Below, piece by piece: positions 12,541-27,434 of a stretch of DNA of 64,000 bases (position 1 is the first letter of the stretch; each line of letters opens with the position of its first letter). The stretch lies in the NCBI GenBank assembly GCA_017864995.1, contig GCA_017864995.1_4097.1; one strand, 5' to 3'. The translations under genes and the position numbers were made by a program. Source of the DNA: a phage. The notes beneath the pieces were generated by a model. The model made no database searches, had not been told where the DNA came from, and worked only from the letters and a program-made list of their open reading frames with translations.

Positions 12541-12561
12541 TAGATACTACGGGGTAACATC

Positions 12562-12792
12562 ATGACTAAGCGAATTGTTTTACTTAACGAAAGCAGTACT
12601 ACACAACTACTTAACGCCGTGCATTATGATATTGAAACGAGCGTTAATCTTATCAGTACTGTAGTACTGTTGGACACTGGAAAGGTCGCCAATGATAAAG
12701 CGATTGCAGGTATATTAACGGATCTTGAGCCTGGTCGCAGTGCACCAATAACGTTAAATTGTAAAGTGTTTAATATTTTACTCACTGATTAA
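12562..12792 (+). CDS. hypothetical protein (76 aa)
   Basis: MTKRIVLLNESS; followed by strong terminator. Confidence 0.5.
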   Translation: MTKRIVLLNESSTTQLLNAVHYDIETSVNLISTVVLLDTGKVANDKAIAGILTDLEPGRSAPITLNCKVFNILLTD

Positions 12793-12798
12793 GTACAT

Positions 12799-12826
12799 AG
12801 CCCACCTGGTGGGCTTTTTTGTTTTT
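12799..12826 (+). terminator. rho-independent terminator
   Basis: AGCCCACC-t-GGTGGGCT then TTTTTTGTTTTT. Confidence 0.7.
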
Positions 12827-12874
12827 GTAGTATCGTAGTACTGAGATACTTTGAAAATAGTTTTAAGAAAGTAG

Positions 12875-12902
12875 TTGACATTACCGCAGAAAAGCGTAGA
12901 AT
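12875..12902 (+). promoter_or_regulatory. promoter TTGACA-16-TAGAAT
   Basis: followed by ~110-nt leader related to the 10291/20066 elements. Confidence 0.45.
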
Positions 12903-13031
12903 GTATTACATCAAGACGGGGAGCACTAAGTAGACCGCCAGTAAGTCGAACGAAAAACTGGACACGTCGAGAAAACTTTGATACACTAATAAACGTAAAC
13001 GTAAACTTAACTTTAATTGAGGATTTATAAA

Positions 13032-13514
13032 ATGGCTAATGTAAAATCATTCATCAAAGCACTGGTAGCAAATGAAACTAACGTCGCGGCTGAGATCCTG
13101 GCTGAACTGGATAACGATACCATGAAAGCGGTACGCAATAATTTTAACATCGCGTACAGTACTGCGAAAGAACTACAAGCAAATAAAGCGGCAGAAATTG
13201 AAGCGGCAAAGGCGGCCCGTGAAGCAGAACTAAAAGCAACAATTGAAAGTATCCAGGCGGCAGTAGTTGGATTGGATCTGGAAGTAGTTACAGAGATGGC
13301 ACAAAAAGCCCTGGCGGTTAAGTATGGGGAAGACAAGCCAGAAGTAAAAGCCAAAAAATGGATTCAGGAACGCGTAGCGGTAGTACTGGACAACGGGGAA
13401 GAATATCTGATTCCGGTGCGTGGTAACTGCATTGCGGTAGTACTGGACGCGATTAACTCCAGTGGTATGACTCGCGAGGAATGGATCGAAGCTCATCGCA
13501 AAGTTGAAGCATAA
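13032..13514 (+). CDS. hypothetical Ala/Glu/Lys-rich coiled-coil-like protein
   Basis: MANVKSFIKAL...AAEIEAAKAAREAELKATIESIQAA; RBS GAGGA. Confidence 0.6.
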   Translation: MANVKSFIKALVANETNVAAEILAELDNDTMKAVRNNFNIAYSTAKELQANKAAEIEAAKAAREAELKATIESIQAAVVGLDLEVVTEMAQKALAVKYGEDKPEVKAKKWIQERVAVVLDNGEEYLIPVRGNCIAVVLDAINSSGMTREEWIEAHRKVEA

Positions 13515-13535
13515 CAATTAAAGTACTGAATCACT

Positions 13536-13566
13536 AGCCCACCTTAAACGGTGGGCTTTTTTGTGT
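13536..13566 (+). terminator. rho-independent terminator
   Basis: AGCCCACC-ttaaac-GGTGGGCT then TTTTTTGTGTTT. Confidence 0.7.
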
Positions 13567-13716
13567 TTATCGTTTACCAGGCCACCAGCACCGCCTAGAA
13601 ACGATTCTAACGCATTAAACTGATTATCTGATGCATTGCCCTAGCTGGTGGCGGTAAGGTCGTTGTAATGCGATTGAGAGCGTTTAAAGTATTTTGCAAA
13701 AAGTAATAAAAAGTAC

Positions 13717-13744
13717 TTGCACGATTAAGAGATTAGCGTATAAT
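13717..13744 (+). promoter_or_regulatory. class I promoter (TTGCAC-16-TATAAT)
   Basis: followed by hairpin GAGAGGGGGAA..TTCTCC. Confidence 0.55.
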
Positions 13745-13799
13745 GTTTTACATCGAGAGGGGGAAACGGTTCTCCTTCCAAATCAAAGGAATCAAAACA

Positions 13800-14027
13800 A
13801 TGGCTATTATCATTACTCGCGTATCTGGTACTACTGGCAACGAACAAGTAGTTGCAGTCATTACCATCAAGGAAGGTGCGGAATTGCAAAATGCAATGAA
13901 TACCTGGGCCGTTAATGAGTTCGGTCAGTGGGCAAGTGTAGCATACATTGAAACCTATCAAGTGCCGTCGATTAGTTTAACTGATTTGGGCGTTGAGCGT
14001 ATCCTTTGCCTTGATGAATTAAATTAA
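13800..14027 (+). CDS. hypothetical protein (75 aa)
   Basis: start MAIIITRVSG (track start 13743 lies in promoter/hairpin). Confidence 0.55.
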   Translation: MAIIITRVSGTTGNEQVVAVITIKEGAELQNAMNTWAVNEFGQWASVAYIETYQVPSISLTDLGVERILCLDELN

Positions 14028-14112
14028 AAAGTACTTGCAAAGTAAATCGAATAAAGTATAATACATTACATCAAGGGGAGAAAATGGTTCTCCCCACTAC
14101 AAGGAAACTAAA

Positions 14113-14256
14113 ATGAAAACTTGTCAATGTGGTCAGAAATCTATTACTGGTTTAAAGCGGGGCGTTGCACTTTGCCAGTACCATTATAATTTACAAGTAT
14201 GGGGTAAAGAATGGGCCGACCAGGTGGAAGCAGCAAAGAAAGCAAAAAGTAAGTAA
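14113..14256 (+). CDS. tiny Cys-containing protein (47 aa, below track cutoff)
   Basis: MKTCQCGQKS...LCQYHYN; own class I promoter plus hairpin upstream. Confidence 0.45.
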   Translation: MKTCQCGQKSITGLKRGVALCQYHYNLQVWGKEWADQVEAAKKAKSK

Positions 14257-14275
14257 AAATATTATCACAGTACTA

Positions 14276-14304
14276 TTGACATAGTTTGATAGTACTGGCA
14301 TAAT
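14276..14304 (+). promoter_or_regulatory. class II promoter (AGTACTaTTGACA-N9-gatAGTACTGg-CATAAT)
   Basis: TTGACA-17-CATAAT flanked by two AGTACT; near-identical copies at 17116 and 25293. Confidence 0.5.
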
Positions 14305-14345
14305 AGATTTTATCAAGACAACATATTAATTTAAGGAATACTAAA

Positions 14346-14669
14346 ATGGCTAAAACTATCATTAACACCGTTTCCCTGGCTGCAATCCGTGCAATCAATG
14401 TTGACGGTAAACGTTGGACTGATTCATATGGCAATACTTATCATTCTTGTCATGTAAGCGTCGAACTGGATAACGGTTTGAATGATCTGGCGGTTGAATC
14501 ATTTACTTATGGCTATGAAGATGCATATCAACAAACGGCGTTAGATCTATTAAAGGAATCAGTAGACGGGCTTAATACTGATGAAACCTCCCTTACTCGT
14601 TTGTGCAATGATCTTAATATCCCGTTGCATTGTACTGTACATAATGTTAAACGCAAAAAAGATCTTTAA
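14346..14669 (+). CDS. hypothetical protein, paralog of 20839-21162
   Basis: shared RWTDSYGNTYHSC..FTYGY..VKRKKD with 20839 gene. Confidence 0.6.
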   Translation: MAKTIINTVSLAAIRAINVDGKRWTDSYGNTYHSCHVSVELDNGLNDLAVESFTYGYEDAYQQTALDLLKESVDGLNTDETSLTRLCNDLNIPLHCTVHNVKRKKDL

Positions 14670-14749
14670 TTAGCTTTACTTTATGCAGATACTTTGATAT
14701 AGTGTCTGCATAGGGGAAAGAAATTAAATTAACTTAAGAGGAACGTATA

Positions 14750-15019
14750 ATGAAAAATATCAGTACTTTAATCGATGCAGGTACTCATGTTCGTCGGTCT
14801 ATGGTTGCAACCAGTACTACAAAACAAGTACCAAGCGGTTATCTTGTATTTGTGTACGATGGTAAACTCCTGGAACGTTCAATCAATTTTGATGTTAAAA
14901 ACAATTGCCGTTTTATTATCTTTAAGCGTGAACAATATAAAATTGATTTACCAGCAAAGCCCATAAGCGGGGCGTACAACGTGCAATCATTGTTTGAACG
15001 TCAACCATACACCTATTAA
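14750..15019 (+). CDS. hypothetical protein (89 aa)
   Basis: MKNISTLIDAG; RBS AAGAGGAA. Confidence 0.55.
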   Translation: MKNISTLIDAGTHVRRSMVATSTTKQVPSGYLVFVYDGKLLERSINFDVKNNCRFIIFKREQYKIDLPAKPISGAYNVQSLFERQPYTY

Positions 15020-15070
15020 TCAAAACATCGTTAGCGGTCGATTTAGGCCGCTTATATTGGGGATTATACC

Positions 15071-15343
15071 ATGAACGTTAATCAAGTACTGAATGAAGTT
15101 GAAAGCATCATTAAACCAATGAAACGCATTGATGCTATGTTAACACCGGAAGAATGCCGCCTTTATGAGCGTTACAGCGTCGAACAAGTCCAGGCGATGG
15201 CTATGGCTACCCCAGCCGTTAAACCGCCTGAGAATGCGTTACAGGACGTTACAGGGGATTATATCATCAATCCAGTACTAGGGAAGATGGCTGCAATCAC
15301 CGAAGATCAACAAGACTACTTAAGCCAGTACTTAAAAGGTTAA
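15071..15343 (+). CDS. hypothetical protein (90 aa)
   Basis: MNVNQVLNEVES; RBS GGGGA. Confidence 0.55.
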   Translation: MNVNQVLNEVESIIKPMKRIDAMLTPEECRLYERYSVEQVQAMAMATPAVKPPENALQDVTGDYIINPVLGKMAAITEDQQDYLSQYLKG

Positions 15344-15348
15344 TTAAT

Positions 15349-15558
15349 ATGCTTACTGTACAGGATAAGATCGACATCTTAAAGGTTAATATGTATGTGA
15401 TTGATGCAGTACCTGGTAAAGTATTTGCATACGATGACACCACTGTAAGCGATTTCTACTATAGCCAGGACGTGGGGGATCTTTCTGTACAGTCGGTTAT
15501 TGAAAACGTAGTTAATGCAGCGTATGAGCATTTACTTTCAAATAGTACTTGCAATTAG
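15349..15558 (+). CDS. hypothetical protein (69 aa)
   Basis: MLTVQDKIDILK; closely follows upstream gene. Confidence 0.5.
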   Translation: MLTVQDKIDILKVNMYVIDAVPGKVFAYDDTTVSDFYYSQDVGDLSVQSVIENVVNAAYEHLLSNSTCN

Positions 15559-15627
15559 TTTTTAAACGCGTATAATGTTTTACATGAAGGGGAGAAATGA
15601 TTCTCCCCACTAATTAAGGAATATGAA

Positions 15628-15774
15628 ATGAAAGCATCAAAAAAGAGTAATACTAAGAAAGCACGTTCACCTTTCGCTGGGGTATTCCCTTTACGTTTCG
15701 TTGATGAAGTAGTTTCCTACCCGCCGGGCCTTACTCCTGAGATGGTAGAAAGTTTGCGTAAATCTAAAAAATAG
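15628..15774 (+). CDS. small basic protein (48 aa, below track cutoff)
   Basis: MKASKKSNTKKARSPFAG...; class I promoter plus hairpin GGGGAGAA..TTCTCCCC upstream. Confidence 0.45.
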   Translation: MKASKKSNTKKARSPFAGVFPLRFVDEVVSYPPGLTPEMVESLRKSKK

Positions 15775-15855
15775 TACTTGCAATTAGTTTTTAGTACTGT
15801 ATAATGTTTTACATGAAGGGGAGAAATGATTCTCCCCAATAACAGGAGAATCAAA

Positions 15856-16008
15856 ATGAAACAATACAACGCTCGGTTTGATGTTACTATCGGTAACGGC
15901 AAAGGTCAATTCTCTTTCAGTACTCGCAAAAGTTATACAGAAAACTTCCTGCGTAATTGTGCACTGACCGCCGCACAAATTAAACATTATTTTCAGGCTA
16001 AAAAATGA
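15856..16008 (+). CDS. hypothetical protein (50 aa)
   Basis: start MKQYNARFD after RBS CAGGAGAA; class I promoter plus hairpin upstream. Confidence 0.5.
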   Translation: MKQYNARFDVTIGNGKGQFSFSTRKSYTENFLRNCALTAAQIKHYFQAKK

Positions 16009-16094
16009 AAACATTAGCTTACTATAGTTCGGCCCTGGTCGGTGCATTGATCGCGGCGTTGTTAGTAACCTATCTATTCTTTATGGTGATTTAA
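16005..16094 (+). CDS. candidate 29-aa single-pass membrane peptide
   Basis: MKTLAYYSSALVGALIAALLVTYLFFMVI; ATGA overlap with upstream stop. Confidence 0.35.
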   Translation: MKTLAYYSSALVGALIAALLVTYLFFMVI

Positions 16095-16238
16095 ATGAAT
16101 CCAACAGGTTTAAACTATAAAAGTTGTTCGGCATTTACGAAAGCAAATAAAGCGAATGCACGTAAAGCGAAAGTACAAGAATACATCAAGCAAGGCATGA
16201 CGCGAAAGGCGGCGATTCTAAAAGCTAAAAATAAATGA
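16095..16238 (+). CDS. small basic protein (47 aa)
   Basis: MNPTGLNYKSCSAFTKANKANARKAKVQEYIKQG; abuts upstream ORF. Confidence 0.4.
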   Translation: MNPTGLNYKSCSAFTKANKANARKAKVQEYIKQGMTRKAAILKAKNK

Positions 16239-16459
16239 AAAAAGTGGTTGACTCCGGTCAGCCATTTTGCTATTATATATTCATTGAGAGATAGCTCACT
16301 AGCCCACAGGGTGCATAAGTGTATCTATTATATAAGTATTGAGTACTGAAAACTATTTTAAAAGTATTTGTAGAAAGTACTTGCAAACTATCTCAATAAG
16401 CGTATAATGTTTTACATCGAAAGGGGAAACGGTTTCCCCTGGTAATAAGGAAACGAATC

Positions 16460-16801
16460 ATGACTATCTCAATTGCTCAATCTAACTTTGAAAATGAAAT
16501 CATCGCCCAGGCACTGCGTTTAAATGATGGTCGGGCCGAAATTAATTACGGTTTCAATTCAGGCGGTTGCGAAAACTATCAGTACTTTGTAACGGCTGAT
16601 GGCGGTGTCCTGGGTATCAATACAGTTATTGTAAACATCCAAAAAATTAATTTCAATGATCCAGACGATAGCCAGTTTTACATCACTGGCGTAGACGTGA
16701 ACTATGAGGATGACTCACTAACTGATGATTACACTGGCGAGCGGTTAGAAAGTGCATACGGTGAAGATGATTATCAGTCCGGTCCAGAAGATTTCGAATA
16801 A
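16460..16801 (+). CDS. hypothetical acidic protein (113 aa)
   Basis: MTISIAQSNF; Asp/Glu-rich C-term; class I promoter plus hairpin upstream. Confidence 0.6.
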   Translation: MTISIAQSNFENEIIAQALRLNDGRAEINYGFNSGGCENYQYFVTADGGVLGINTVIVNIQKINFNDPDDSQFYITGVDVNYEDDSLTDDYTGERLESAYGEDDYQSGPEDFE

Positions 16802-16897
16802 TATAAAAAAATAGTTTGACAATAGATTATAGTACTGTATAATAGTTTACATCAAGGGGAGAGATGATTCTCCCCACTAACAGAGAGAGAAAACAAA

Positions 16898-17110
16898 ATG
16901 GCTAATATCTGCACTGTACTGAAAAATGCAAAACAAGTTTTATTTTCTGATCACGATCATTTAAACAAGGATATTACTGGCGTTCGGAATATCAAAGATG
17001 TAAAAAGTGTTATGGGTATCTATTGCAATATGAAACGTGTTGGAACGTTCGGCGACAAAGTACTATACCAGGCAGGGGATTACAATTTTACACTGACTAT
17101 CATTAACTAA
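16898..17110 (+). CDS. hypothetical protein (70 aa)
   Basis: MANICTVLKNAK; promoter TTGACA-16-TATAAT plus hairpin upstream. Confidence 0.55.
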   Translation: MANICTVLKNAKQVLFSDHDHLNKDITGVRNIKDVKSVMGIYCNMKRVGTFGDKVLYQAGDYNFTLTIIN

Positions 17111-17193
17111 AAATATTATCACAGTACTATTGACATAGTTTGATAGTACTGACATAATAACTTTTATCAACTACACTACTAAGGAATTAAAAA

Positions 17194-17373
17194 ATGGCTA
17201 TCATCGCAAAAACTGAAATCGTTGGTCTGGATTCTATCATCATGACGTTTGAAGATCAAAAAGGTATGTATGTAGTTTCATATGGTGATTATGTTCGGGA
17301 GTATGAAACGGTAGACGAAGCCTTTGAAAGTTATATTCGCCAGGTGAATAAAGCATACGACGACTACCGCTAA
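17194..17373 (+). CDS. hypothetical protein (59 aa, below track cutoff)
   Basis: MAIIAKTEIVGLD; class II promoter upstream; RBS AAGGAA. Confidence 0.5.
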   Translation: MAIIAKTEIVGLDSIIMTFEDQKGMYVVSYGDYVREYETVDEAFESYIRQVNKAYDDYR

Positions 17374-17463
17374 AATATATTACCAGTACTATTGACAACG
17401 TTTGATAGTACTGTATAATAAGTTTTATAAACAGTAGTTAACTTAACCTAAGAGAGAAATAAA

Positions 17464-17607
17464 ATGATCGCACTGGATTCATTCATCGACGCAGTACTGG
17501 CAAAAACTGGCGAGGATCTGACCGCAGAACAATACGCGATGATCGAGCAATGTCAGCAAAACGGTAAATCGGTGAAAGATACTGTTAAGATTATCCGCAA
17601 GATGTAA
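17464..17607 (+). CDS. hypothetical protein (47 aa)
   Basis: MIALDSFIDAVLAK; class II promoter upstream; terminator downstream. Confidence 0.45.
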   Translation: MIALDSFIDAVLAKTGEDLTAEQYAMIEQCQQNGKSVKDTVKIIRKM

Positions 17608-17613
17608 TATTAT

Positions 17614-17643
17614 AGCCCACTGGTTAACGCTGGTGGGCTTTAA
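17614..17643 (+). terminator. terminator-like hairpin
   Basis: AGCCCAC-N12-GTGGGCT then TTTAATC; stem contains GCTGGTGG. Confidence 0.45.
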
Positions 17644-17706
17644 TCATTTACCCTATACAATGCCAGTACTCAACCGTTTATCTCGTTAGAATGCGTTACA
17701 GGACGT

Positions 17707-17919
17707 TTGACAATGATTAGCATGAAATCAGTACAAAAACAAATAGAAACATTATCAAAAATTAAACGTAAACAGTACTCGTTAGAATATACAATCAATG
17801 GTAACTATCATCTAATGAAAGAGAATAATTTCATTGTCATTGATGAATCATTGCAAGTTATTAGTATAGTACTGAAAGCATTAATCAATGACAGAAAAAA
17901 AATTAAAATAATCTATTGA
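17707..17919 (+). CDS. hypothetical protein (70 aa)
   Basis: ORF only; weak RBS and no clear promoter. Confidence 0.3.
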   Translation: MTMISMKSVQKQIETLSKIKRKQYSLEYTINGNYHLMKENNFIVIDESLQVISIVLKALINDRKKIKIIY

Positions 17920-18240
17920 CAATATCCTCCAGTACTGGCATAATACTTACATCAAGACGAGAACGTCACTAACCCATAGGGTGCACAAATGTAACTATAT
18001 AATATCGATCAATAAATGATCAAAAAAGTACTGGATCAATTTAGCATAAGGCGTATAATTCTGATCAATTCTTGATCAAAGGCAATATACGCAGTTGAAT
18101 TTATATAGACAGTACAAAGGCGTTACTATCCGTGGTAATGCTGGTGGATATGTAGTATCATGTGGTTTGAATAAGATTAGCACTAGTAGTATTATTGTAG
18201 CATTACAGTACTATAGTATTTTTATAATGAGGTTAAAATA

Positions 18241-18498
18241 ATGGCAGTAGGATACGCGAAAGACGGGGCCGAACAAGACGAGATTAACGCAGTGATTCAG
18301 GCAGCCGTTAACCACGCTAGAAAGCAAATTAACGCACAAAGAGAATCACTGGTACATTGCCTCGACTGCGGCGATAAAATCCCTGAGAATCGACGCCAGG
18401 CCGTTATAGGGTGCATGTATTGTATTACTTGCCAGGAGGATCATGATAGTACTTTTAAAAGAGATCCGCGTAATTGTTGGCATAGATCTATGAGATAA
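18241..18498 (+). CDS. TraR/DksA-family C4 zinc-finger protein
   Basis: RKQINAQ...CLDCGDKIPENRRQAVIGCMYCITCQ matches the TraR-type C-x2-C-G-x2-IPE-x-RR...C-x2-CQ pattern. Confidence 0.7.
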   Translation: MAVGYAKDGAEQDEINAVIQAAVNHARKQINAQRESLVHCLDCGDKIPENRRQAVIGCMYCITCQEDHDSTFKRDPRNCWHRSMR

Positions 18499-18505
18499 AA
18501 AGTAA

Positions 18506-18533
18506 TTGACAGTACTGAAAGATAGTGTATAAT
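18506..18533 (+). promoter_or_regulatory. promoter TTGACA-16-TATAAT
   Basis: AGTACTG in spacer; upstream of GNAT-like gene. Confidence 0.5.
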
Positions 18534-18562
18534 GTTTTATATCTTAACTGAGGATAGTAATC

Positions 18563-18919
18563 ATGGGAATACAACATATCACGCGTACTACTGACAATGG
18601 CGAGATCACTGGTTATCAGGTACAGGGCAAAGTAGCACAATTGCAGTACTGGTTTGTTAAACGTGGAATCATTGCACCGGATCTTGATTATGACCGTGTA
18701 GCGTTTATTGATTCTCTTTATGTTGATCCTGATAGTCGGGGCAATGGTGAAGGTAACGAATTAATGAATGCCTTTATTGATGCCGCCGATGATTCAGATT
18801 GTATCATCTTAGAATGCGATACGGGAGAAGATAACGCCTTTAATCTTAAAGAATGGTACGAAGGTTTCGGATTCGAGGTATTGATAGATAGTGAATATCC
18901 TATCATGATTTTATCATAG
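18563..18919 (+). CDS. putative GNAT-like acetyltransferase (small)
   Basis: LYVDPDSRGNGEGNELMNAFIDAA resembles GNAT motif A (R-x-x-G-x-G/A); weak call. Confidence 0.35.
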   Translation: MGIQHITRTTDNGEITGYQVQGKVAQLQYWFVKRGIIAPDLDYDRVAFIDSLYVDPDSRGNGEGNELMNAFIDAADDSDCIILECDTGEDNAFNLKEWYEGFGFEVLIDSEYPIMILS

Positions 18920-18996
18920 TACTTGCATTTAGTTTTCAGTACTGTTATAGTACTTGCATCAAGGGGAAATATCTTCCCCTACTAAGAGGAAATAAA

Positions 18997-19185
18997 ATGG
19001 AAAACTTATCAAGTATTTTAGTACAAGATGATTTCGGTAATCCTGGAAGTGCTATCATTGTTCGGGGCAATAAAGCAACGTTTGTTATTGCTGGTGGACC
19101 CGTACAGCGTAGCATTAAAAATAATGCTGTTACCATTAATAATGTACGCTATCGCTTAGATAAAGAATTAATTCATAAACTGTAA
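18997..19185 (+). CDS. hypothetical protein (62 aa)
   Basis: MENLSSILVQDD; promoter plus hairpin GGGGAAAT..TTCCCC upstream. Confidence 0.55.
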   Translation: MENLSSILVQDDFGNPGSAIIVRGNKATFVIAGGPVQRSIKNNAVTINNVRYRLDKELIHKL

Positions 19186-19270
19186 AAAAGTACTGGACAA
19201 TAGATTATAGTACTGTATAATAGTTTACATGAAGGGGAGAAATGATTCTCCCCACTAAGAGGAAAGAAAA

Positions 19271-19483
19271 ATGCAAGGTCAACTAATCGTTCGTAAATGG
19301 TCTGATACTAACGAAAAACCGTGGGATGTACAATACATCGCCCCCAATGGTGAATCCAGATATCAACCAGGTGTAACGCATAGTACTGAGCAATTCGCCG
19401 CCGCTCATCGCGAACGTCTGTTACAATCAATGCAGCAAGGTTCCGGTGAAAAATTCATTCAGGATCATTGGCTGAAAGATTAA
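19271..19483 (+). CDS. hypothetical protein (70 aa)
   Basis: MQGQLIVRKW; promoter plus hairpin upstream. Confidence 0.55.
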   Translation: MQGQLIVRKWSDTNEKPWDVQYIAPNGESRYQPGVTHSTEQFAAAHRERLLQSMQQGSGEKFIQDHWLKD

Positions 19484-19569
19484 AAAGTACTTGCACAGTA
19501 CTGAATAAAGTGTATAATGTTTTATATCGGAAGGGGAATAGTTCCCCTCCGAACAAAGAGGAAAGTATA

Positions 19570-19743
19570 ATGGTCCAGGTAGAATTAACAGTACTGAAAG
19601 ATCTGTTTTATCGGATTGGTACTACTGGCGAATATCCGAAGGGTGATAATGCAAAACTTTACGTATCACTCGACTTATGGCAACGCGAACAATTAGCAAC
19701 AGCCTGGCGTAAAGGCAAAGCAGATAGCGAGGTGAAAGCATGA
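19570..19743 (+). CDS. hypothetical protein (57 aa)
   Basis: start MVQVELTVLK after RBS AAAGAGGAAAG; track start 19468 lies in promoter. Confidence 0.5.
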   Translation: MVQVELTVLKDLFYRIGTTGEYPKGDNAKLYVSLDLWQREQLATAWRKGKADSEVKA

Positions 19744-19889
19744 AAGAATTCTTATTTGAAGTAGTGTTTCAAGGTGTCGGCAATAACCAACTGATTCGAT
19801 CAAGTGGTTATAATGTTAACCAGGCATGGAATAACATTAAACAAATGTACCCGAACGCTATCACATATCGCAACCCGAAAGAAGTTTAA
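19740..19889 (+). CDS. hypothetical protein (49 aa)
   Basis: MKEFLFEVVFQGVGNN; ATGA overlap with upstream stop. Confidence 0.4.
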   Translation: MKEFLFEVVFQGVGNNQLIRSSGYNVNQAWNNIKQMYPNAITYRNPKEV

Positions 19890-20204
19890 AAAATAATTGA
19901 AAAAGGGATTGACTCCGGTCAGTCCCTTTGCTATTATATACGCATAGAAACAAATCAGCCCACCGGGTGCATAAATGTATCTATTGTTTGCTGGTGGCTA
20001 GTACTGAAAACTATTTTTAAAAAGTACTTGCATTGTACTTATAATCAAGTATAATGTTTTACATCAGGACGGGGAACGAAATAAGTAACCCCGTTAAGTA
20101 GTCCAGGAGTAAGACATACGAAAAACTCCCCTGATAAAATAGTTTGACAATAGAAAGTAAACGAGTATAATACTTACATCAACCACTGATAAGGAAACAT
20201 AAAA

Positions 20205-20480
20205 ATGCGGATTCTACTGACAGCTAACGAAATCGAACAAGTACTGACTACTAACCTGGAAGACTGGAAACGTGAAGCAGATATCCAGGCGGTTCAATGG
20301 TTAAATGATAAGTTAACGCCGGATGACTTAAGCAAGATTGTAGATCCTCAATTCTACGAAGATATCCACGACACCGCGTTAAGCGTCGAGGATGTACTAG
20401 ATAAGCACTTTATTGATACTGATTTGCAGGTTTACGGTCGTAAAAACTTTATCACTATTCACGACATTTACAATAATTAA
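20205..20480 (+). CDS. hypothetical protein (91 aa)
   Basis: MRILLTANEIEQ; downstream of leader element copy 2 and a second promoter. Confidence 0.55.
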   Translation: MRILLTANEIEQVLTTNLEDWKREADIQAVQWLNDKLTPDDLSKIVDPQFYEDIHDTALSVEDVLDKHFIDTDLQVYGRKNFITIHDIYNN

Positions 20481-20567
20481 GTATTGACAAAGTATCTTAG
20501 TACTGTATAATAGTTTACATCGAGAGGGGGGAATGGTTCCCCTCCTAACTAAAAGAGAGAAATAAAA

Positions 20568-20750
20568 ATGGCTAAGTGCACTATCTGCAAGAAAGAAATA
20601 GTATTAGTTCCAAGTGCCCGTGAACGTGCCGCTCGGTTCGGTGGCAAAGCGTCAGACTATACAAAAATGTTTACTACCCATACAGCTTGCCAGGTAGCAA
20701 AACGTTCACAAGAAAGCGTAGAATTAATGCGTAAACTTTCCAAAAAATAA
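20568..20750 (+). CDS. small Cys-containing protein (possible zinc ribbon)
   Basis: MAKCTICKKE...HTAC; promoter plus hairpin upstream. Confidence 0.5.
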   Translation: MAKCTICKKEIVLVPSARERAARFGGKASDYTKMFTTHTACQVAKRSQESVELMRKLSKK

Positions 20751-20838
20751 GTATTGACAAAGTATCTTAGTACTGTATAATAGTTTACATCAAGTGAGGG
20801 GAAACGGTTCCCCTCCTAACAAAGAGAGAGAAATAAAA

Positions 20839-21162
20839 ATGGCTATGATCCTTGCCCAGAAAGTAGAATTGAAAATTGTAACCTCCTTTGACATTAACGT
20901 TAATCGGTGGACTGATTCACACGGCAATACTTACCACTCTTGCTACGTGTCTGCGTTAATTGGCGACCGCTGGGAAGACCTGGGACACGAAACCTTTACA
21001 TACGGTTACGGTACACAAGGCGAATACACGGGCTTGGAGATCATTAAAGAAACCGTTATAGGTTTCAACCCGAAAGAAAAAGTTATTCACCGCATCGAGG
21101 AAGAGATCAACAAAGAAATAACAGTTCGCTACCACGATGTAAAACGTAAGAAAGACATGTAA
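20839..21162 (+). CDS. hypothetical protein, paralog of 14346-14669
   Basis: MAMILAQKVEL..NRWTDSHGNTYHSC..FTYGYG..VKRKKDM. Confidence 0.6.
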   Translation: MAMILAQKVELKIVTSFDINVNRWTDSHGNTYHSCYVSALIGDRWEDLGHETFTYGYGTQGEYTGLEIIKETVIGFNPKEKVIHRIEEEINKEITVRYHDVKRKKDM

Positions 21163-21257
21163 TAGAATCCATTTAAAGTACTATTTGACATTGCCCAGAT
21201 AGTACTTTATAATAGACTCTAACTTGTAGTACTAACTCAACCAATAGGATGTATACC

Positions 21258-21653
21258 ATGATTACTAAATTCTACGCTACCCGTGAAGCTGCCCGTATTG
21301 TTGCACGCGAGGAAGGAGCAGCATTTAAAGACATGGGAACGACAGCACCGAAAGGTCAACGCTGGGCCGTACAGTTCAAAGAAATCTCTGATATTGTGAA
21401 TTCACCTGAGCCAGTACTAACAGCAGCAGAACTAAAACGAGCGGATATGCTGGCGGCAATACTTGACGCACAAGATGAGTTTATCGCTGATTCTGATATC
21501 AAAGTACAGGTAAACCACACCGCATGGACTCACGCGGATCACCTGGCAAACCTTAAGCGTCCAAGTGAACTGATTCGCAACCAGAAAGAGATCCGACATG
21601 ATCGTAAGGGTAATCGTGTAACAGTATACAGTAAACGCCGCCAGGTTATCTAA
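21258..21653 (+). CDS. hypothetical protein, paralog of 9421-9687
   Basis: MITKFYATREAARIVAREEGAAFKDMG...RKGNRVTVYSKRR. Confidence 0.6.
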   Translation: MITKFYATREAARIVAREEGAAFKDMGTTAPKGQRWAVQFKEISDIVNSPEPVLTAAELKRADMLAAILDAQDEFIADSDIKVQVNHTAWTHADHLANLKRPSELIRNQKEIRHDRKGNRVTVYSKRRQVI

Positions 21654-21675
21654 TAACTTGCAGTACTAACAACAC

Positions 21676-21700
21676 GGCGGGATCAGTTCCCGCCTTTTTT
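21676..21700 (+). terminator. rho-independent terminator
   Basis: GGCGGG-atcagtt-CCCGCC then TTTTTT. Confidence 0.65.
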
Positions 21701-21714
21701 ATAGGACAAACAAA

Positions 21715-21969
21715 ATGATTAAGGTTCAACTATATAAAGATAACATCTTACGGGTACACTATAAAGCACCGAAGAGAATCATCACAAAGGCCGTACAGCT
21801 TGCTAATGAGTTTATTAATGGTAACCTATTACCTAGGAAGTTAAGCAACGGGAAACTGCGTGTAATCGACGTGGACACTAACAACAGGATAGTAATCGAG
21901 AACACAGGAAAGATAAACCTTTATGAGCATCAACAATACAATAAGAAAATAAAACTAATATCACGTTGA
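21715..21969 (+). CDS. hypothetical basic protein (84 aa)
   Basis: MIKVQLYKDN; RBS AGGA. Confidence 0.5.
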   Translation: MIKVQLYKDNILRVHYKAPKRIITKAVQLANEFINGNLLPRKLSNGKLRVIDVDTNNRIVIENTGKINLYEHQQYNKKIKLISR

Positions 21970-22022
21970 CAGTACTCAATTGTTTTAGTACTATGTACAC
22001 ATACCAACACGGGAGAAACAAA

Positions 22023-22241
22023 ATGAAATTATCTAAAATCGAAAAGAAAACTATTGATGAAGCAGTTAAGCACGGTTATACCTTTCGTAATGATTCACAT
22101 TTTACCAATTTTCAACAAGGGTATCGTACTATTAAAAAACTAATTGACAAAGGTTTATTAGTTGAAGTCAATAACGGTAACGGTATCGAGTATCAACCAA
22201 CACAGGACGCATTTTATTTTAAGAAATATAATATTATCTAA
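22023..22241 (+). CDS. hypothetical protein (72 aa)
   Basis: start MKLSKIEKK; shares a duplicated ~60-nt promoter/leader with 22299 gene. Confidence 0.5.
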   Translation: MKLSKIEKKTIDEAVKHGYTFRNDSHFTNFQQGYRTIKKLIDKGLLVEVNNGNGIEYQPTQDAFYFKKYNII

Positions 22242-22298
22242 TTGACAGTACTCAAATGTTTTAGTACTATATGTACATACCAACACGGGGGAAACAAA

Positions 22299-22541
22299 AT
22301 GATTACTTTAGAAAAACGTATCAAAGAAACTACATCGCTGGTGGAACTGTTAACAGTACTCAAATGTAAAACAACACCATTCAGCACGCCGGACTTTATT
22401 AATATGGTTGATGTTAATGGTCGCTATCGTATCACGGTCGAACAAGGAGCGGCGAAAGTATTCAGTACTAAAAACACGAAGGAAGTGATCCACGCCGTTA
22501 ATGTTAAAAAAGTAGTTGCCATTGATAGTAAAGTACTGTAA
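22299..22541 (+). CDS. hypothetical protein (80 aa)
   Basis: start MITLEKRIKE; promoter/leader 22243-22301 near-identical to 21966-22025. Confidence 0.5.
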   Translation: MITLEKRIKETTSLVELLTVLKCKTTPFSTPDFINMVDVNGRYRITVEQGAAKVFSTKNTKEVIHAVNVKKVVAIDSKVL

Positions 22542-22572
22542 TATAGTTTCATTAACTCAAGGAGAACATGCA

Positions 22573-23157
22573 ATGCGTAATTATACAAAATTCATCCGTA
22601 CACTGTCAGAAATGGAAACCAACAAAGAGATCCTTTCAGCTTGTCGGTTAGCTGACCTGGAGATCATCGGTGCTGGTTCTTCCCGTATAGTTTTCGCTTT
22701 AAATGATCGGTTAGTGATTAAGGTCGCGAATTGTGATGCGGGTGTCGAACAAAATGAAACTGAATGTAAGGTATGGAATTTTTTAGACTATGACCGCCCT
22801 CAGTTGAAACAGTACTTTGCAAAGGTGCATATGCATTTATGCGATCCTGATAATATGTTTATCGTTATGGATCGGTTGAGTACTGCAAGCAAAGGCAGTG
22901 TGAAGCACGTAAACGCGTGCAATGAATTAAAGTACAATATTAAACGTAATGCAATCGAACGCCAGCACCGCTTTGCTGATGCACTACAACACGTTGATGA
23001 TACATTATCAACACTAACGATAAGAGATATCAGAAAACAGAATATCGGCCAGGATCGTAATGGACTTATTAAAGTACTTGATTACGGTTTAACCAGCAAT
23101 ATCTGGAATCAGTACTATAAAAAGCGTGATGTGGCAGCAAGTAAAGTAACACGATAA
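22573..23157 (+). CDS. putative protein-kinase-like protein
   Basis: IGAGSSRIVF (Gly-rich loop), VIKVA (Lys), IRDIRKQNIG (HRD-like loop), LDYG (DFG-like); RBS AAGGAGAA. Confidence 0.4.
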   Translation: MRNYTKFIRTLSEMETNKEILSACRLADLEIIGAGSSRIVFALNDRLVIKVANCDAGVEQNETECKVWNFLDYDRPQLKQYFAKVHMHLCDPDNMFIVMDRLSTASKGSVKHVNACNELKYNIKRNAIERQHRFADALQHVDDTLSTLTIRDIRKQNIGQDRNGLIKVLDYGLTSNIWNQYYKKRDVAASKVTR

Positions 23158-23378
23158 AAAAGATTAAAAAAGGGATTGACTTCGGTCAGTCCCTTTGCTA
23201 TTATATATTCATTGAGAGATAACTCACTGACCCATAGGGTGCGGAAGTGTATCTATTATATAAGTATTCAGTACTGAAAACTATTTTTAAAAAAGTACTT
23301 GCATTGTACTTAGAATCAAGTATAATGTTTTATATCGAGAGGGGGAAATGGTTCTCCCTGGCAATAAGGAATAAAATC

Positions 23379-23600
23379 ATGACTACAATGACTTGCATTT
23401 ACGCTTCCAATCGTCTGAATGATGCGGCCTTTAATGTTGATTCAGAATATCAATGTTATCGGGATGAAAATAAAAAAGTTTTTGTAGTTGATAATAATGG
23501 TTTCCATATTGAATTGCAATCCGGCTTCACTGGCGTTGATGGTAAATCAGTATGGGGCGTACAGGATGATAAAGGTACATATCATTTTAAACGTAATTAA
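23379..23600 (+). CDS. hypothetical protein (73 aa)
   Basis: start MTTMTCIYASN after promoter plus hairpin. Confidence 0.5.
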   Translation: MTTMTCIYASNRLNDAAFNVDSEYQCYRDENKKVFVVDNNGFHIELQSGFTGVDGKSVWGVQDDKGTYHFKRN

Positions 23601-23683
23601 GTATTGACAAAGTATCTTAGTACTGTATAATAGTTTACATCAAGGGGAGAATAGTTCTCCCCAATACAATAAGGAATAAAATC

Positions 23684-24091
23684 ATGTCTACTACTACTAA
23701 TCTCGCTCGGAACATCACTAACGATAAAAATCATGCTGCAATGGTCGCTGGTTACATTGAAGCTATGCAATTCAGTACTGTACATAATGATAACGGCGAT
23801 TACCTGGAAGATTATGAGTTATCTGATGAAGCACGTCAAGCGGCGGTGATTGCATGTTCTCGCTTCATTGAGAAACACGGTAATGATCTGGAAGTAGTTC
23901 GCGGTATGTTTATTGATTACGGTTATGAGCAAGCTGGTCATGATCTGTTCCTTACCCGCGAAGGTCACGGAACTGGTTTTTGGGATCGTGGTTTAGGTCA
24001 CTATGGCGATGTATTCACGAAGTACTGCGAAGAAATCAACGTTTGCGATCCCTATGTAGGCGATGATAACTTAATCTATATGGGCGAATAA
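23684..24091 (+). CDS. hypothetical acidic protein (135 aa)
   Basis: MSTTTNLARN; promoter plus hairpin GGGGAGAA..TTCTCCCC upstream. Confidence 0.6.
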   Translation: MSTTTNLARNITNDKNHAAMVAGYIEAMQFSTVHNDNGDYLEDYELSDEARQAAVIACSRFIEKHGNDLEVVRGMFIDYGYEQAGHDLFLTREGHGTGFWDRGLGHYGDVFTKYCEEINVCDPYVGDDNLIYMGE

Positions 24092-24178
24092 AAGTATTTG
24101 ACAAAGTATATCAGTACTGTATAATAGTTTACATCAAGGGGAGAACTATTCTCCCCACCAATAAAAGGAAACAAAATT

Positions 24179-24451
24179 ATGTCCAGCTACTCCGCTACTA
24201 TGATCATTAAAGATATGAACGGTAATCCTACTTCTGCTGGTGGATCATTTGGAAATATTAACTTAGATGGGCGGTTATCCATGCAATCAGCCATCGATGC
24301 AGCGAAAGAAGTTTTTAAGAATGAATGTACTGTTAGTAAGCTGGATTATATGGGATTCGCTATCGAGAAAACTACTCGTTTTGTGAACTACAAAAATCCA
24401 CTGATGATTGATACTAACCTGAAAGCTAACGAAGTGGGGTACTTATTATGA
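24179..24451 (+). CDS. hypothetical protein (90 aa)
   Basis: MSSYSATMIIKD; promoter plus hairpin upstream. Confidence 0.55.
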   Translation: MSSYSATMIIKDMNGNPTSAGGSFGNINLDGRLSMQSAIDAAKEVFKNECTVSKLDYMGFAIEKTTRFVNYKNPLMIDTNLKANEVGYLL

Positions 24452-24639
24452 CAGTAGAAGAAGTTAAAAAAGTACTGGCAGTACTACGATATCATAATCA
24501 TTGCAAGGTGAAGAATGATCCTGATTATCTTGATTCATCCCTGGAGGAAGACACCTTGAACGCTATAAGCCATATGCAGACATTAGCAAAGCGTATGACT
24601 GAAAAGAACATGCCGGACTATATCGGAAATAAAATTTAA
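24448..24639 (+). CDS. hypothetical protein (63 aa)
   Basis: MTVEEVKKVLAV; ATGA overlap with upstream stop. Confidence 0.5.
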   Translation: MTVEEVKKVLAVLRYHNHCKVKNDPDYLDSSLEEDTLNAISHMQTLAKRMTEKNMPDYIGNKI

Positions 24640-24726
24640 AAAGTACTTGCATTGTAGTTAGATTAACGTATAATGTTTTATATCGAGAGGGGGAAATGGT
24701 TTCCCCTCAAGTCCAGGAGATACACC

Positions 24727-24990
24727 ATGAACACTATCGAAATCACTATCAATGCACACGTATACGACAACGTAGTACTGCAAACTACTATGACCGCCAA
24801 TGATACCAGTACTTTGCGGAATACTGTTATTAGTGCCGTATGTGCCGCTATCGGTGATGTCGCCCTGGAAAATGCAAAACACGTAAACGATGGTTTCACT
24901 ATGTGCAAACGTGATAACGCAAAACATATCATCGTGGAAGGTTACGGCGGTGTAGAATTTAATGTTTATATGAAAAAAGTACTTGCATAA
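24727..24990 (+). CDS. hypothetical protein (87 aa)
   Basis: start MNTIEITINAH after RBS CAGGAGA; track start 24673 lies in promoter. Confidence 0.55.
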   Translation: MNTIEITINAHVYDNVVLQTTMTANDTSTLRNTVISAVCAAIGDVALENAKHVNDGFTMCKRDNAKHIIVEGYGGVEFNVYMKKVLA

Positions 24991-25057
24991 TAACTAAAAC
25001 AAAGTATAATGTTTTGCATAGGGGGAGATATCCTCCCCCACTAAAAGGAGTAATAAA

Positions 25058-25282
25058 ATGGCTAACTTTGATGAACTGATGCGGGAAGTAGCTAACCTGG
25101 CAGAAGAGAAGAAATCATTCGATTCTATCTATAACACCGCTCACCGTGATTCAGTACTGGCATGTAACCAGGAACAAAAAGATGAACTAATCGCCACCTA
25201 TCATGAAGCATGGAAGTACTACCGACAATGGGAGAAAGAAGAAAGTGAGTCTACCATTGACGGCCTCAATAATCTAATCTAA
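25058..25282 (+). CDS. hypothetical protein (74 aa)
   Basis: MANFDELMREVA; promoter plus hairpin GGGGGAGATATCCTCCCCC upstream. Confidence 0.55.
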   Translation: MANFDELMREVANLAEEKKSFDSIYNTAHRDSVLACNQEQKDELIATYHEAWKYYRQWEKEESESTIDGLNNLI

Positions 25283-25358
25283 AAGTTTTATTTCAGTACT
25301 ATTGACATAGCTTGATAGTACTGATGTAATAACTTTACTAACTACAAGGGGAAACATA

Positions 25359-25616
25359 ATGGATCAGTTCACACAATATCGGGTAAATCCTCAAGCTATG
25401 GCCTACGTAGAAGACCATAAAACGTTACCAGTACTGCAACCAGTTAAAGGCCATATCTATCGTGCAATGTCGTGGTGTACGGCCCAGGATGGCTATAAAA
25501 CCGTAGCCGTTGGTATGTATTGCGGTAATGGTGAATGGTTTGATCCAAATAATCCGGTAGCCATTGACAGTACTGAAAAAATGAAATGGGCCGACTACAT
25601 CGAAGATATTTCATAA
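25359..25616 (+). CDS. hypothetical protein (85 aa)
   Basis: MDQFTQYRVNPQ; class II promoter upstream. Confidence 0.55.
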   Translation: MDQFTQYRVNPQAMAYVEDHKTLPVLQPVKGHIYRAMSWCTAQDGYKTVAVGMYCGNGEWFDPNNPVAIDSTEKMKWADYIEDIS

Positions 25617-25706
25617 AAACTATTTGACAGTACTAACCAGTAATGTATAATGTTTTACATAGAGCGGGGGAATAGTTCTCCCGCCAATAGTTTGGAGTAA
25701 AACATT

Positions 25707-25907
25707 ATGTCTATCGCTATCGCCCTGGTTGAAGTACTGAAAGAAGCTAAAGCCAACCAGATCGACGTAAAGATCCAGGAACTACAAAACGGCTTAATCG
25801 GCTGTACTTGTACCGCTGGTGGAGCGGCAGACTATCGAGAACACGAATCACTCGAATCACTGGTTCGGTATCTTACCATGATCGTTGATGATTGGAGAAT
25901 CATCTAA
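25707..25907 (+). CDS. hypothetical protein (66 aa)
   Basis: MSIAIALVEVLK; promoter plus hairpin GCGGGGGAA..TTCTCCCGC upstream. Confidence 0.55.
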   Translation: MSIAIALVEVLKEAKANQIDVKIQELQNGLIGCTCTAGGAADYREHESLESLVRYLTMIVDDWRII

Positions 25908-26152
25908 CAAAAAAGAATAAAAAAAGGGATTGACTCCGGTCAGTCCCTTTGCTATTATATACGCATAGACAAAAACTAGCCCACAGGGTGCATAGGTGTA
26001 TCCAAAATATATAGTTAATAACGGTGAGTAACTATCTGCTGGTGGAGTGAAAACTATTAATAAAAAAGTATTGACAAAGTATATCAGTACTGCGATAATG
26101 TATCTCGTAGGGCGGCAATGGTGCGACGGCCCACAAAGTTAGGAGATTCACC

Positions 26153-26488
26153 ATGAGTACTTCAATCGCTATCGTTAAAGCTTTCATCCGTACCAATGAT
26201 TCATCTGTATACTGCGACGGCCTTGATCGTAAAGTATCATTCTCATTCATTGTCGCACAAACGGCTGACGGTTCTCGGTATATCCTTAACGATAGCGAAG
26301 TAAATCATTACTACTTCACTAAAGCTACTGGCTTTAAACGCATCGATGCTGATGTAGTATACGCTAAGATGAATAAGCTGGTAGATAAGATTAACGCTAA
26401 AGGGACTATCGATTTACTGTACTGGACCGAAACCGATCCAGAATACGGCTCTCACCGTTACCTGAATCCAGGTATTAAAATGAAATAG
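26153..26488 (+). CDS. hypothetical protein (111 aa)
   Basis: MSTSIAIVKAF; RBS AGGAGA. Confidence 0.55.
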   Translation: MSTSIAIVKAFIRTNDSSVYCDGLDRKVSFSFIVAQTADGSRYILNDSEVNHYYFTKATGFKRIDADVVYAKMNKLVDKINAKGTIDLLYWTETDPEYGSHRYLNPGIKMK

Positions 26489-26573
26489 TACTTGCATAGT
26501 ACTTAGATTCATGTATAATGTTTTACATAGAGAGGGGGAAATGGTTCTCCCTCCTAAATTAAGGAGTTTTATC

Positions 26574-26975
26574 ATGACCTTCTCAATCACTTCCTTCGCT
26601 GACGTTTTAGTACTGGCCCGGACTTTTGGTAAAGCTGGCCTTGAACACGCTGTAAGTAATGGTCATATGCACCCTGAATATTGCCGCATCATTGGAAGCT
26701 GCAAACGTTGGGCAGTGTCCCGTAATATTGAGATTGAAAACTTCAATGACGGCAACAACGAATATACAGTTGATGCAGTATTCGAAGCCGTTGATCTCGG
26801 CGGTATCTATAACACTAACCTGAATGATGTGCGTATCGTTCGCACGGGGTTCGGTGCTTATGATGTATCTATCCGTGACGCTATGGACAAGGGATACATT
26901 AGCAAGGACCAGTTAGCTTACATCATGCAGCAAACTAAGGAGCGTAATGAAGCACGTACTATCTTAGGGTTGTAA
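26574..26975 (+). CDS. hypothetical protein (133 aa)
   Basis: start MTFSITSFADV after RBS AAGGAG; promoter plus hairpin upstream. Confidence 0.55.
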   Translation: MTFSITSFADVLVLARTFGKAGLEHAVSNGHMHPEYCRIIGSCKRWAVSRNIEIENFNDGNNEYTVDAVFEAVDLGGIYNTNLNDVRIVRTGFGAYDVSIRDAMDKGYISKDQLAYIMQQTKERNEARTILGL

Positions 26976-27033
26976 GCGTTACACATCATAGGCCGCTCTC
27001 TAGCGGCCTTAACTATATCAGGAGTACATACAC

Positions 27034-27243
27034 ATGATCTATACAGTATATAGCGTTCTAGGCACTATTACAGGCGTACATGATAACGTCGATGGTGCTA
27101 TGCGTACAGTACTGCAACAGGTTCCACTAAAGCCTAAGACCATTAAGCAGATGACAGCACGACTAACCAGGGCGACGGCTGGCGTGGAAGTATGGCAGGA
27201 CTATGGGGATACACAGATAATCGTAAGCGTAACGAAGGATTAA
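27034..27243 (+). CDS. hypothetical protein (69 aa)
   Basis: MIYTVYSVLGTI; RBS CAGGAG. Confidence 0.5.
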   Translation: MIYTVYSVLGTITGVHDNVDGAMRTVLQQVPLKPKTIKQMTARLTRATAGVEVWQDYGDTQIIVSVTKD

Positions 27244-27271
27244 TGCGTAAAGGGATTTAGTACTGAATCAT

Positions 27272-27335
27272 AAAAAAGTCAAGGCATTTTTAAACTTCAG
27301 CGTTAAAAAAATGCATAGGTAATCCCTTGACTTTT
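27272..27335. repeat. nested inverted repeat (large palindrome)
   Basis: AAAAAGTCAAGG..GCATTTTTAAAC-ttcagc-GTTAAAAAAATGC..CCTTGACTTTT. Confidence 0.45.
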
Positions 27336-27434
27336 ATGAATAAAAAGGGATTGGACTATGGCAAAATGCGTAGGGGGCTAAAGGGCGGGTAACCTTAGCG
27401 ACTTCGATAAAGGGGTATTACTAATAAAATGTTA

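Follow-up and report, generated by a model that had tools for sequence, protein, structure and literature searches.

Phages with T7-, T5- and SPO1-type fixed-end terminal repeats have genome ends that fall on the same base in every relative, with conserved sequence at the cut, and T5-like repeats are long and carry early genes and strong host-type promoters. In T7, the concatemer junction (CJ) is linked to packaging, a hairpin intermediate has been proposed to duplicate the repeat during concatemer processing, and RNase III-type processing between early genes leaves protected 3' ends. The CJ has also been named a natural class II terminator for T7 RNA polymerase (bioRxiv 10.64898/2026.02.12.705533); this transcription stop signal, which adjoins the terminal-repeat junction, is sequence-specific, hairpin-independent and read by the phage's own polymerase. 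The injection stop signal (iss) of T5 is a large untranslated, non-coding part of the left repeat that is rich in repeats, inverted repeats and palindromes, and it is defined by an array of eight DnaA boxes (bioRxiv 10.1101/866236). Finally, in intrinsic terminators (including bidirectional A-tract/U-tract terminators), the stem is flanked by an A-run on its 5' side and a U-run on its 3' side, and the structure persists through changes in sequence.

Here, we analysed a stretch of 64,000 nucleotides of phage DNA (contig GCA_017864995.1_4097.1; hereafter, the window) and found that it belongs to an Asteriusvirus, a 121Q/PBECO4-like jumbo coliphage with 95.5% identity to WPEC3. A preliminary description of this window had pointed to a palindrome and G-rich repeats upstream of an array of small open reading frames. 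By homology with relatives, these sequences sit at the right-hand boundary of a predicted 20.8-kb direct terminal repeat, and the presence of the right physical end of the repeat in this region is the main fact absent from that description. As in the T7, T5 and SPO1 types, the ends fall on the same bases in relatives and conserved sequence lies at the cut. The repeat differs from these types in its size (~20.8 kb in a roughly 350-kb genome), in its right-end element (GGACTATG ... AAAGG ... CT|TAGC) and in having junctions that share only ...[GC][AG]CTA^. As in T5-like repeats, early-type cargo is prominent: small + strand genes and consensus sigma-70 promoters crowd 6583..27395. The features of the locus are as follows, in window coordinates.

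6576-6608, no strand assigned: left repeat boundary, ...GCCACTA|AGTAGGCAGAggaagTCTGCCgTACT, cut at 6582|6583; placed by record starts and invariant in 8 genomes.
6583-27395, + strand: predicted direct terminal repeat, one collapsed copy of 20,813 bp; placed by the record starts and ends of vB_Ec-M-J and fEgEco12.
27034-27243, + strand: last repeat gene, 69 aa, function unknown; from the ORF list, with a match to phrog_17833 (E = 2e-35).
27249-27254, + strand: AAAGGG copy 1; not conserved (AAAAGG in 5/12 Asteriusvirus sequences).
27268-27340, + strand: long imperfect AU-rich hairpin of 73 nt (z = -5.28 as RNA and as DNA).
27332-27337, + strand: T-run at the hairpin's 3' foot, TTTTAT here and TTTTTT in the 121Q clade; part of the ACTTTT motif.
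27344-27349, + strand: AAAGGG copy 2; part of AAAGGGATTGGACTATG, at the left edge of the terminus element.
27346-27408, no strand assigned: terminus element, conserved and unstructured, AGGGATTGGACTATG ... ATGCGT.GGGGG ... AAAGG.CGGGTAACCT|TAGCGACTTCGAT.
27380-27385, + strand: AAAGGG copy 3; inside the terminus element (AAAGTG in 121Q, ATGGTG in Turkey5).
27395-27396, no strand assigned: inferred right-end cut, CT|TAGC, with T27395 as the last repeat base and T27396 as the first unique base.
27409-27414, + strand: AAAGGG copy 4; 14 nt outside the repeat and not conserved (AAAAGG or AAAGTT in relatives).
27435-27462, + strand: promoter of sigma-70 type, TTGACT-16-TATTAT; it precedes the small-ORF array and is the first in the unique region.

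Because the records of relatives start at the homologue of 6583 and stop at the homologue of 27395, we read 6583-27395 as one collapsed copy of the repeat, with right-unique DNA preceding it in the window and left-unique DNA following it. Seven related GenBank records (Asteriusvirus) stop at the homologue of window position 27395 (...GGGTAACCT|TAGCGAC...); three of the seven were examined at the other end, and the two in the window's orientation start at the homologue of 6583. The first base of the vB_Ec-M-J record aligns to window position 6583 and its last base to 27395, and its annotated "Direct Terminal Repeats" feature (1..21525) ends in this spacer, where the aligned end, ...GGGCGGGTAACCT, is base 27395. 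fEgEco12, for which PhageTerm gave a 20,993-bp repeat that restriction digests confirmed (PMC13070987), starts and stops at the same homologous bases. The records of E9.1, BF17, CRJP21, G17 and WPEC3 terminate exactly 152 nt past the homologue of the 69-aa ORF and have identical last 40 bases; for G17, the repeat had been deduced from the depth of read coverage (PMC6563267). Several of the seven may follow the orientation of earlier records, without independent mapping.

The same end is found in phages of other hosts. Klebsiella phage fENko-Kae01 has a 19,736-bp repeat defined by PhageTerm (PMC11218385) that ends at the homologous CCT|TAGC (...GTCATGCCT|TAGCCACC); upstream of this end lie a 69-aa gene homologue, an AAGTCA/TTGACTT hairpin and GATTGGACTATG. 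The record of Erwinia phage Kaldavass stops at the homologous ...AATGCT|, and those of Serratia BF and Xanthomonas XbC2 read on with TAGC. Thus, the ends of fEgEco12, fENko-Kae01, six further Asteriusvirus records and Kaldavass all lie, by homology, at CT|TAGC, and from these relatives we infer that the right physical end of the window genome is at 27395|27396.

The published termini of two further phages are in question. For JP4, PhageTerm is reported to give cos ends (PMC12648861), at odds with the repeat of its relatives; its record (PQ330092, 370.7 kb) contains this spacer twice, as do those of relatives with terminal repeats. The 8.3-kb repeat of UE-S1 is flagged as probably misassigned by the fEgEco12 paper (PMC13070987). 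We also observed that the internal junctions of vB_Ec-M-J (L001/L004) and BF17 (L013/L026) carry one extra A on the left and one extra T on the right, each a second copy of the base that ends the repeat. We rejected covariation between the cut sites as their source, since they duplicate that base and occur only in records with both repeat copies, and they are most simply explained by an off-by-one error in building two-copy records.

At the other end of the repeat, the junction ...GATAT..CACTA|AGTAGGCAGAGGAAGTC is invariant in eight genomes, and a hairpin begins at the first base of the repeat, 6583 (z = -4.63). fENko-Kae01 (L028 500|501) also has a terminal hairpin at its repeat start, in unrelated sequence (TATCTTCTctgtataAGAAGATA, z = -2.47), and the IMG/VR contig L040 has, by eye, a similar terminal hairpin at ~2033 whose arm and loop differ from those of Kae01. 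L040 was the one useful contig from a scan with the inner left-end motif, which also returned two chance hits. Local alignments of the left junction with the right, in direct and in inverted orientation, scored no better than shuffles and gave no extended similarity. When read towards the repeat, the four mapped ends from two genera are all preceded by ...[GC][AG]CTA^, in register and inverted: the Asteriusvirus ends read CCACTA^AG (left) and TCGCTA^AG (right, bottom strand), and the Kae01 ends CCGCTA^TA (left) and TGGCTA^AG (right, bottom strand). This in-register match (P ~0.003, a rough estimate) is the only motif common to both junctions; it is suggestive of a cut-site preference, which would be inverted at the two boundaries as duplication of the repeat by staggered nicks would predict. 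In the repeat's first ~1.7 kb (6583-8265) there is no convincing ORF, and the first CDS of fEgEco12 starts at 1689; the three strongest + strand RNA folds of the window lie within this stretch, at ~7105-7430 (GC-corrected z ~-5.2 to -5.4).

The spacer at the right end (27244-27492) separates the 69-aa ORF (27034-27243) from a long array of overlapping small ORFs (27493 onward). The region of interest within it comprises the last 150 bp of the repeat and the first 25 bp of unique DNA; the palindrome lies 55-127 bp inside the boundary, AAAGGG copies 1-3 lie inside it and copy 4 lies 14 bp outside. The 69-aa gene has a homologue at the same position in fENko-Kae01 (37% identity), and in Kaldavass, Serratia BF and XbC2 the element closely follows a CDS that is comparable by size and position.

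An alignment of the spacer from 12 Asteriusvirus genomes (including Turkey5, at 69% identity over the spacer, PBECO4, BF17 and SD15) revealed an essentially invariant block, AGGGATTGGACTATG ... ATGCGT.GGGGG ... GCGGGTAACC|TTAGCGACTTCGA. Identity to the window was 0.95 for 27341-27395, 0.97 for 27396-27408 and 0.75 past 27408, and the most conserved non-coding bases are those flanking the cut, not the palindrome. The sequence across the cut is invariant despite a different downstream gene (PBECO4 and BF17), a deletion (SD15) and a replaced palindrome (Turkey5). Folding revealed no secondary structure in the terminus block (z = -0.01), and we thus consider it a sequence element. In Turkey5, the TTGACT palindrome is lost and an ~80-nt tandem duplication stands in its place, while the terminal block is kept; the two elements are therefore separable, and the hairpin is not needed for the boundary. 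The Turkey5 duplication (L014 421-640) takes in the last repeat gene's 3' end and the beginning of the spacer, and besides the terminal ACCTTAGCG there is another copy ~70 nt upstream of it. An upstream copy (CCTTAGTG or GCTTAGT) is also present in Kae01-type phages.

Nine lineages of Escherichia, Klebsiella, Erwinia, Serratia and Xanthomonas phages follow a common plan (i.e., last repeat gene, hairpin, terminus element). Their alignment reads hairpin 3' arm, ACTTTT(C/A)T..., GGACTATG, ~12 nt, GCT.A..AAAGG.C.G..A..CT|TAGC, in which GACTATG is kept in 9/9 lineages, seven of which read GGACTATG. An AAAGG-like block is likewise kept in 9/9, as is CT|TAGC, with only CT| visible in Kaldavass, where the record ends. 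The element order is the same in the IMG/VR contigs L030 and L031. A DNA search with the L031 element found matches in jumbo phages of Salmonella, Erwinia, Serratia, Yersinia and Xanthomonas, most of them at 13-20 kb from the record start, with the Kaldavass match at record positions 1-66; in IMG/VR, the only exact-pattern matches to the right core and to the Kae01 left hairpin were 121Q itself and chance hits. In several lineages (Asteriusvirus, Kae01, L030 and L031), a promoter follows the cut. Together, these data point to 27346-27408 as a candidate recognition and cleavage site for the right genome end, and the conserved block could alternatively serve the promoter that most lineages have after the cut. 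For a few relatives, repeat coordinates are already public; as far as we found, the literature on the termini of relatives does not describe the terminus element, the hairpin or the conservation of the element across genera.

The four AAAGGG copies of the preliminary description are present, at 27249, 27344, 27380 and 27409, and they do not form a conserved repeat family. Four copies compare with 0.37 expected (P = 0.0002 for that hexamer), yet 18% of dinucleotide shuffles of the 249-nt spacer hold some hexamer four times, which makes the repeat weakly remarkable. A functional repeat family was rejected on both counts, i.e., lack of conservation and lack of significance once any hexamer is allowed. 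The counterpart of copy 3 in other genera is AAAGGCC (or GAAGG/TAAGG variants). Copies 2 and 3 are pieces of the terminus element, and copies 1 and 4 drift.

The promoter-like site at 27435-27462 is the sole one in an intergenic gap ahead of the array, in line with its earlier description as the only promoter for the array. The array itself has no intergenic gaps, and it holds 38 promoter-like matches against a shuffle expectation of 47.5. The -35 box of this promoter is kept in most Asteriusvirus genomes (TTGATT in SP27), and the site is lost by deletion in SD15; PBECO4 and BF17 have TTGACT at the aligned position, with a diverged spacer and another gene downstream. On the repeat side, 6000-25900 holds 102 promoter-like sites against 68 expected, and perfect 12/12 matches (TTGACA-16/17-TATAAT) number 11 there and none in the small-ORF array (27396-36000). 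The repeat boundary thus doubles as a boundary of transcriptional organisation.

Two further repeat families accompany promoters in the window. The 8-bp palindrome CAGTACTG occurs 64 times against 0.71 expected (e.g., at 6484, 6534, 6555, 6922, 6962, 7108 and 7134), and AGTACTG occurs 131 times. Copies of CAGTACTG crowd 1-27114 and 44140-64000, and 27115-44139 has just one (34234). Consensus promoters often have it in their spacer, immediately ahead of the -10 box, and in most lineages the stop codon that precedes the hairpin is followed by AGTACT. In addition, four hairpin-plus-promoter modules, AAAGGGATTGACTCCGGTCAGTCCCTTT-GCTATTATAT, lie at 16241-16268, 19902-19929, 23169-23196 and 25923-25950. 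Their -35 box is within the stem, and a conserved stretch of ~50 nt (..GCCCACAGGGTGCATAAGTGTATC..) follows that could be a leader or small RNA. AAAGGGATT is common to these four modules and to AAAGGG copies 1 and 2.

The palindrome that was first described at 27272-27335 is real, with its sequence as quoted except for one G doubled at the AAGG/GCATT junction, and its folding energy stands clear of shuffled controls. Its outer arms (27274-27288 and 27321-27335; 15 nt) are 93% complementary and its inner arms (27284-27291 and 27307-27314; 8 nt) 100% complementary. The segment 27268-27340 folds at -21.2 kcal/mol as RNA and -14.7 kcal/mol as DNA, with z = -5.28 for both, and 0/200 dinucleotide shuffles fold as well. 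In an 80-nt scan of the whole window, the hairpin falls outside the top 25 + strand hairpins (GC-corrected residual z ~-2.8, an estimate), and + strand hairpins that are at least as stable occur in many of the repeat's intergenic regions. Searches of the whole window against Rfam families gave no hit at gathering thresholds (only a chance-level snoR74 below threshold, E = 0.5), and no tRNA or tmRNA was found in the spacer. Small ORFs in the spacer were rejected because they are only 21-22 aa long and unsupported. A promoter on the palindrome arms was also rejected, because their -35-like TTGACT boxes lack a usable -10 and a promoter scan found only a 9/12 match, on the - strand.

The hairpin starts 25 nt after the stop codon of the 69-aa gene (27241-27243) and is, as in a terminator, a stable stem-loop on the transcribed strand downstream of a co-oriented gene. 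The segment from stop codon to cut (137-165 nt; 225 nt in Turkey5) has a long hairpin in 9/9 lineages, although its sequence varies, and an ACTTTT motif is present in 8/9 lineages (GCGTTA in Turkey5). Tight folds gave + strand z-scores of -5.3 (window), -5.0 (121Q), -4.7 (Kae01), -3.6 (L030) and -6.1 (L031), compared with - strand z-scores of -4.2, -3.9, -3.7, +0.5 and -3.3, respectively. The + strand hairpin beats the - strand hairpin by 1.5 to 13.6 kcal/mol, and the + strand of the full stop-to-cut segment is also more stable in 9/9 lineages. G.U pairs number 2-5 on the + strand in 6/6 hairpins counted; the - strand has none in 5/6 and three in Kae01. Within Asteriusvirus, pair 10/75 changes from U-A to G.U (both sides changed) and pair 25/62 from A-U to G.U (one side), so that within-genus covariation is thin, with one double-sided change. 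This strand pattern argues for a structure read on the transcript strand, and against a dyad that a dimeric regulator would bind as double-stranded DNA; since DNA tolerates G.T as well, a hairpin in single-stranded top-strand DNA would also be compatible with the strand bias.

We favour, at a probability of roughly 60%, a composite locus in which a hairpin would form the RNA 3' end of the last early transcripts and a separate element, 27346-27408, would direct cleavage of the right end. The hairpin is most likely a terminator or processing hairpin for early repeat transcription, a putative role in which it would form the 3' end of repeat transcripts made early by host RNA polymerase, by intrinsic termination or by processing and stabilisation. 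In the left copy of the repeat, it would stop transcripts from entering the small-ORF array, which has its own promoter at 27435; in the right copy, it would stop transcripts from running off the DNA end 55 nt away. The packaging nuclease would cut the right end at 27395|27396, sequence-specifically, in the GGACTATG ... AAAGG ... CT|TAGC block. The preliminary description had proposed an operator or a terminator/attenuator gating the array, and its terminator half fits the + strand hairpin that persists in nine lineages, the G.U pairs and the T-run. As in intrinsic terminators, an A-run precedes and a U-run follows the stem, and structure is kept while sequence changes. The hairpin is nonetheless atypical for this class: its AU-rich stem is of unusual length and contains an internal loop, the outer arms are ~32 nt apart, and a consensus terminator scan made no call.

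The next most credible reading, to which we give a distinctly smaller chance, makes the hairpin an RNase III-type processing and mRNA-stabilising structure, such that read-through RNA is cut in the long stem and a protected 3' end is left. A stem of ~23-28 predicted pairs that is AU-rich and broken by internal loops suits this reading better than the compact GC-rich stems of terminators, and in L031 the stem does not adjoin the U-run, ending 7 nt before it. The strand bias suits any role at the RNA level. However, the ACTTTT T-run sits at or near the 3' foot in 8/9 lineages and would be unneeded for processing alone.

A more ambitious version of the composite reading is doubtful in our view. 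Here, the hairpin and terminus element would work as one unit, with a pause or stop of host RNA polymerase at the hairpin, 55 nt upstream, marking or opening CT|TAGC to the packaging nuclease, or top-strand hairpins at the two ends of the repeat would prime or delimit its duplication, and GGACTATG ... CT|TAGC would be a universal right-end signal of RaK2-like phages. The nearest parallel is the T7 CJ, which likewise places a transcription stop signal, putative here, beside a terminal-repeat junction; the CJ acts on the phage's own polymerase by sequence, whereas the hairpin described here would act on the host polymerase. That transcription stopping might be coupled to end formation in this phage, as at the CJ, is speculation by analogy.

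It is somewhat less probable still that the hairpin acts in single-stranded top-strand DNA to aid end formation, either in duplication of the repeat during concatemer processing or by halting DNA entry. Such a role would fit the location of the hairpin 55-127 bp inside the right end in every lineage, the tolerance of G.T wobble in DNA hairpins and the hairpin at the first base of the repeat in two genera (and, by eye, in L040). The locus also resembles the T5 iss in having repeats and palindromes in the non-coding DNA of a long repeat with pre-early-like genes. Against this, Turkey5 keeps the terminus element without this palindrome, and the element is short compared with the large untranslated region of T5. 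DnaA boxes (TTWTNCACA) number 9 in the window against 12 expected, with none within 6583-27395, whereas eight define the T5 signal; a T5-type injection stop signal is therefore unsupported as regards this defining array.

We consider it very improbable that the palindrome is a double-stranded DNA operator or cruciform through which a dimeric regulator gates the array promoter at 27435. The dyad does lie 95-165 bp upstream of that promoter, and both of its arms carry TTGACT-like boxes that resemble the -35 module of early promoters. Yet a dyad read in double-stranded DNA should be conserved in sequence and symmetric between strands, and this palindrome is neither: its sequence changes between lineages while hairpin potential persists, and the - strand is consistently weaker, its mismatches being G.T on the + strand. 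In addition, Turkey5 has promoter and terminus element without the palindrome, SD15 retains the palindrome although its promoter is deleted, and in PBECO4 and BF17 the palindrome and a TTGACT box remain, but the promoter spacer has diverged and another gene lies downstream. The operator half of the preliminary proposal is therefore unsupported, and the spacer should not carry an operator label in annotation. Finally, a functionless relic, i.e., an inverted duplication of promoter-like TTGACTTTT modules, might account for TTGACTTT at 27327, at 27435 and, in a real promoter, at 6948, as well as for its inverted copy at 27275, in a region prone to duplication (the ~80-nt tandem duplication of Turkey5), but it is just as improbable, since a hairpin at the same position outlives sequence turnover in nine lineages with consistent strand bias.

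Most RaK2-like jumbo phage genomes have been deposited with arbitrary start points, and by the count of the fEgEco12 paper only five have determined termini (PMC13070987). The signature described here (last repeat gene, hairpin, ACTTTT, GGACTATG, AAAGG block, CT|TAGC) would predict the right end and the extent of the ~20-kb repeat from sequence alone, with a reach that includes Escherichia, Klebsiella, Salmonella, Erwinia, Serratia, Yersinia and Xanthomonas phages. It also offers concrete bases to mutate in asking how very long terminal repeats are cut and duplicated, and it bears on where early transcription of the repeat separates from that of the rest of the genome.
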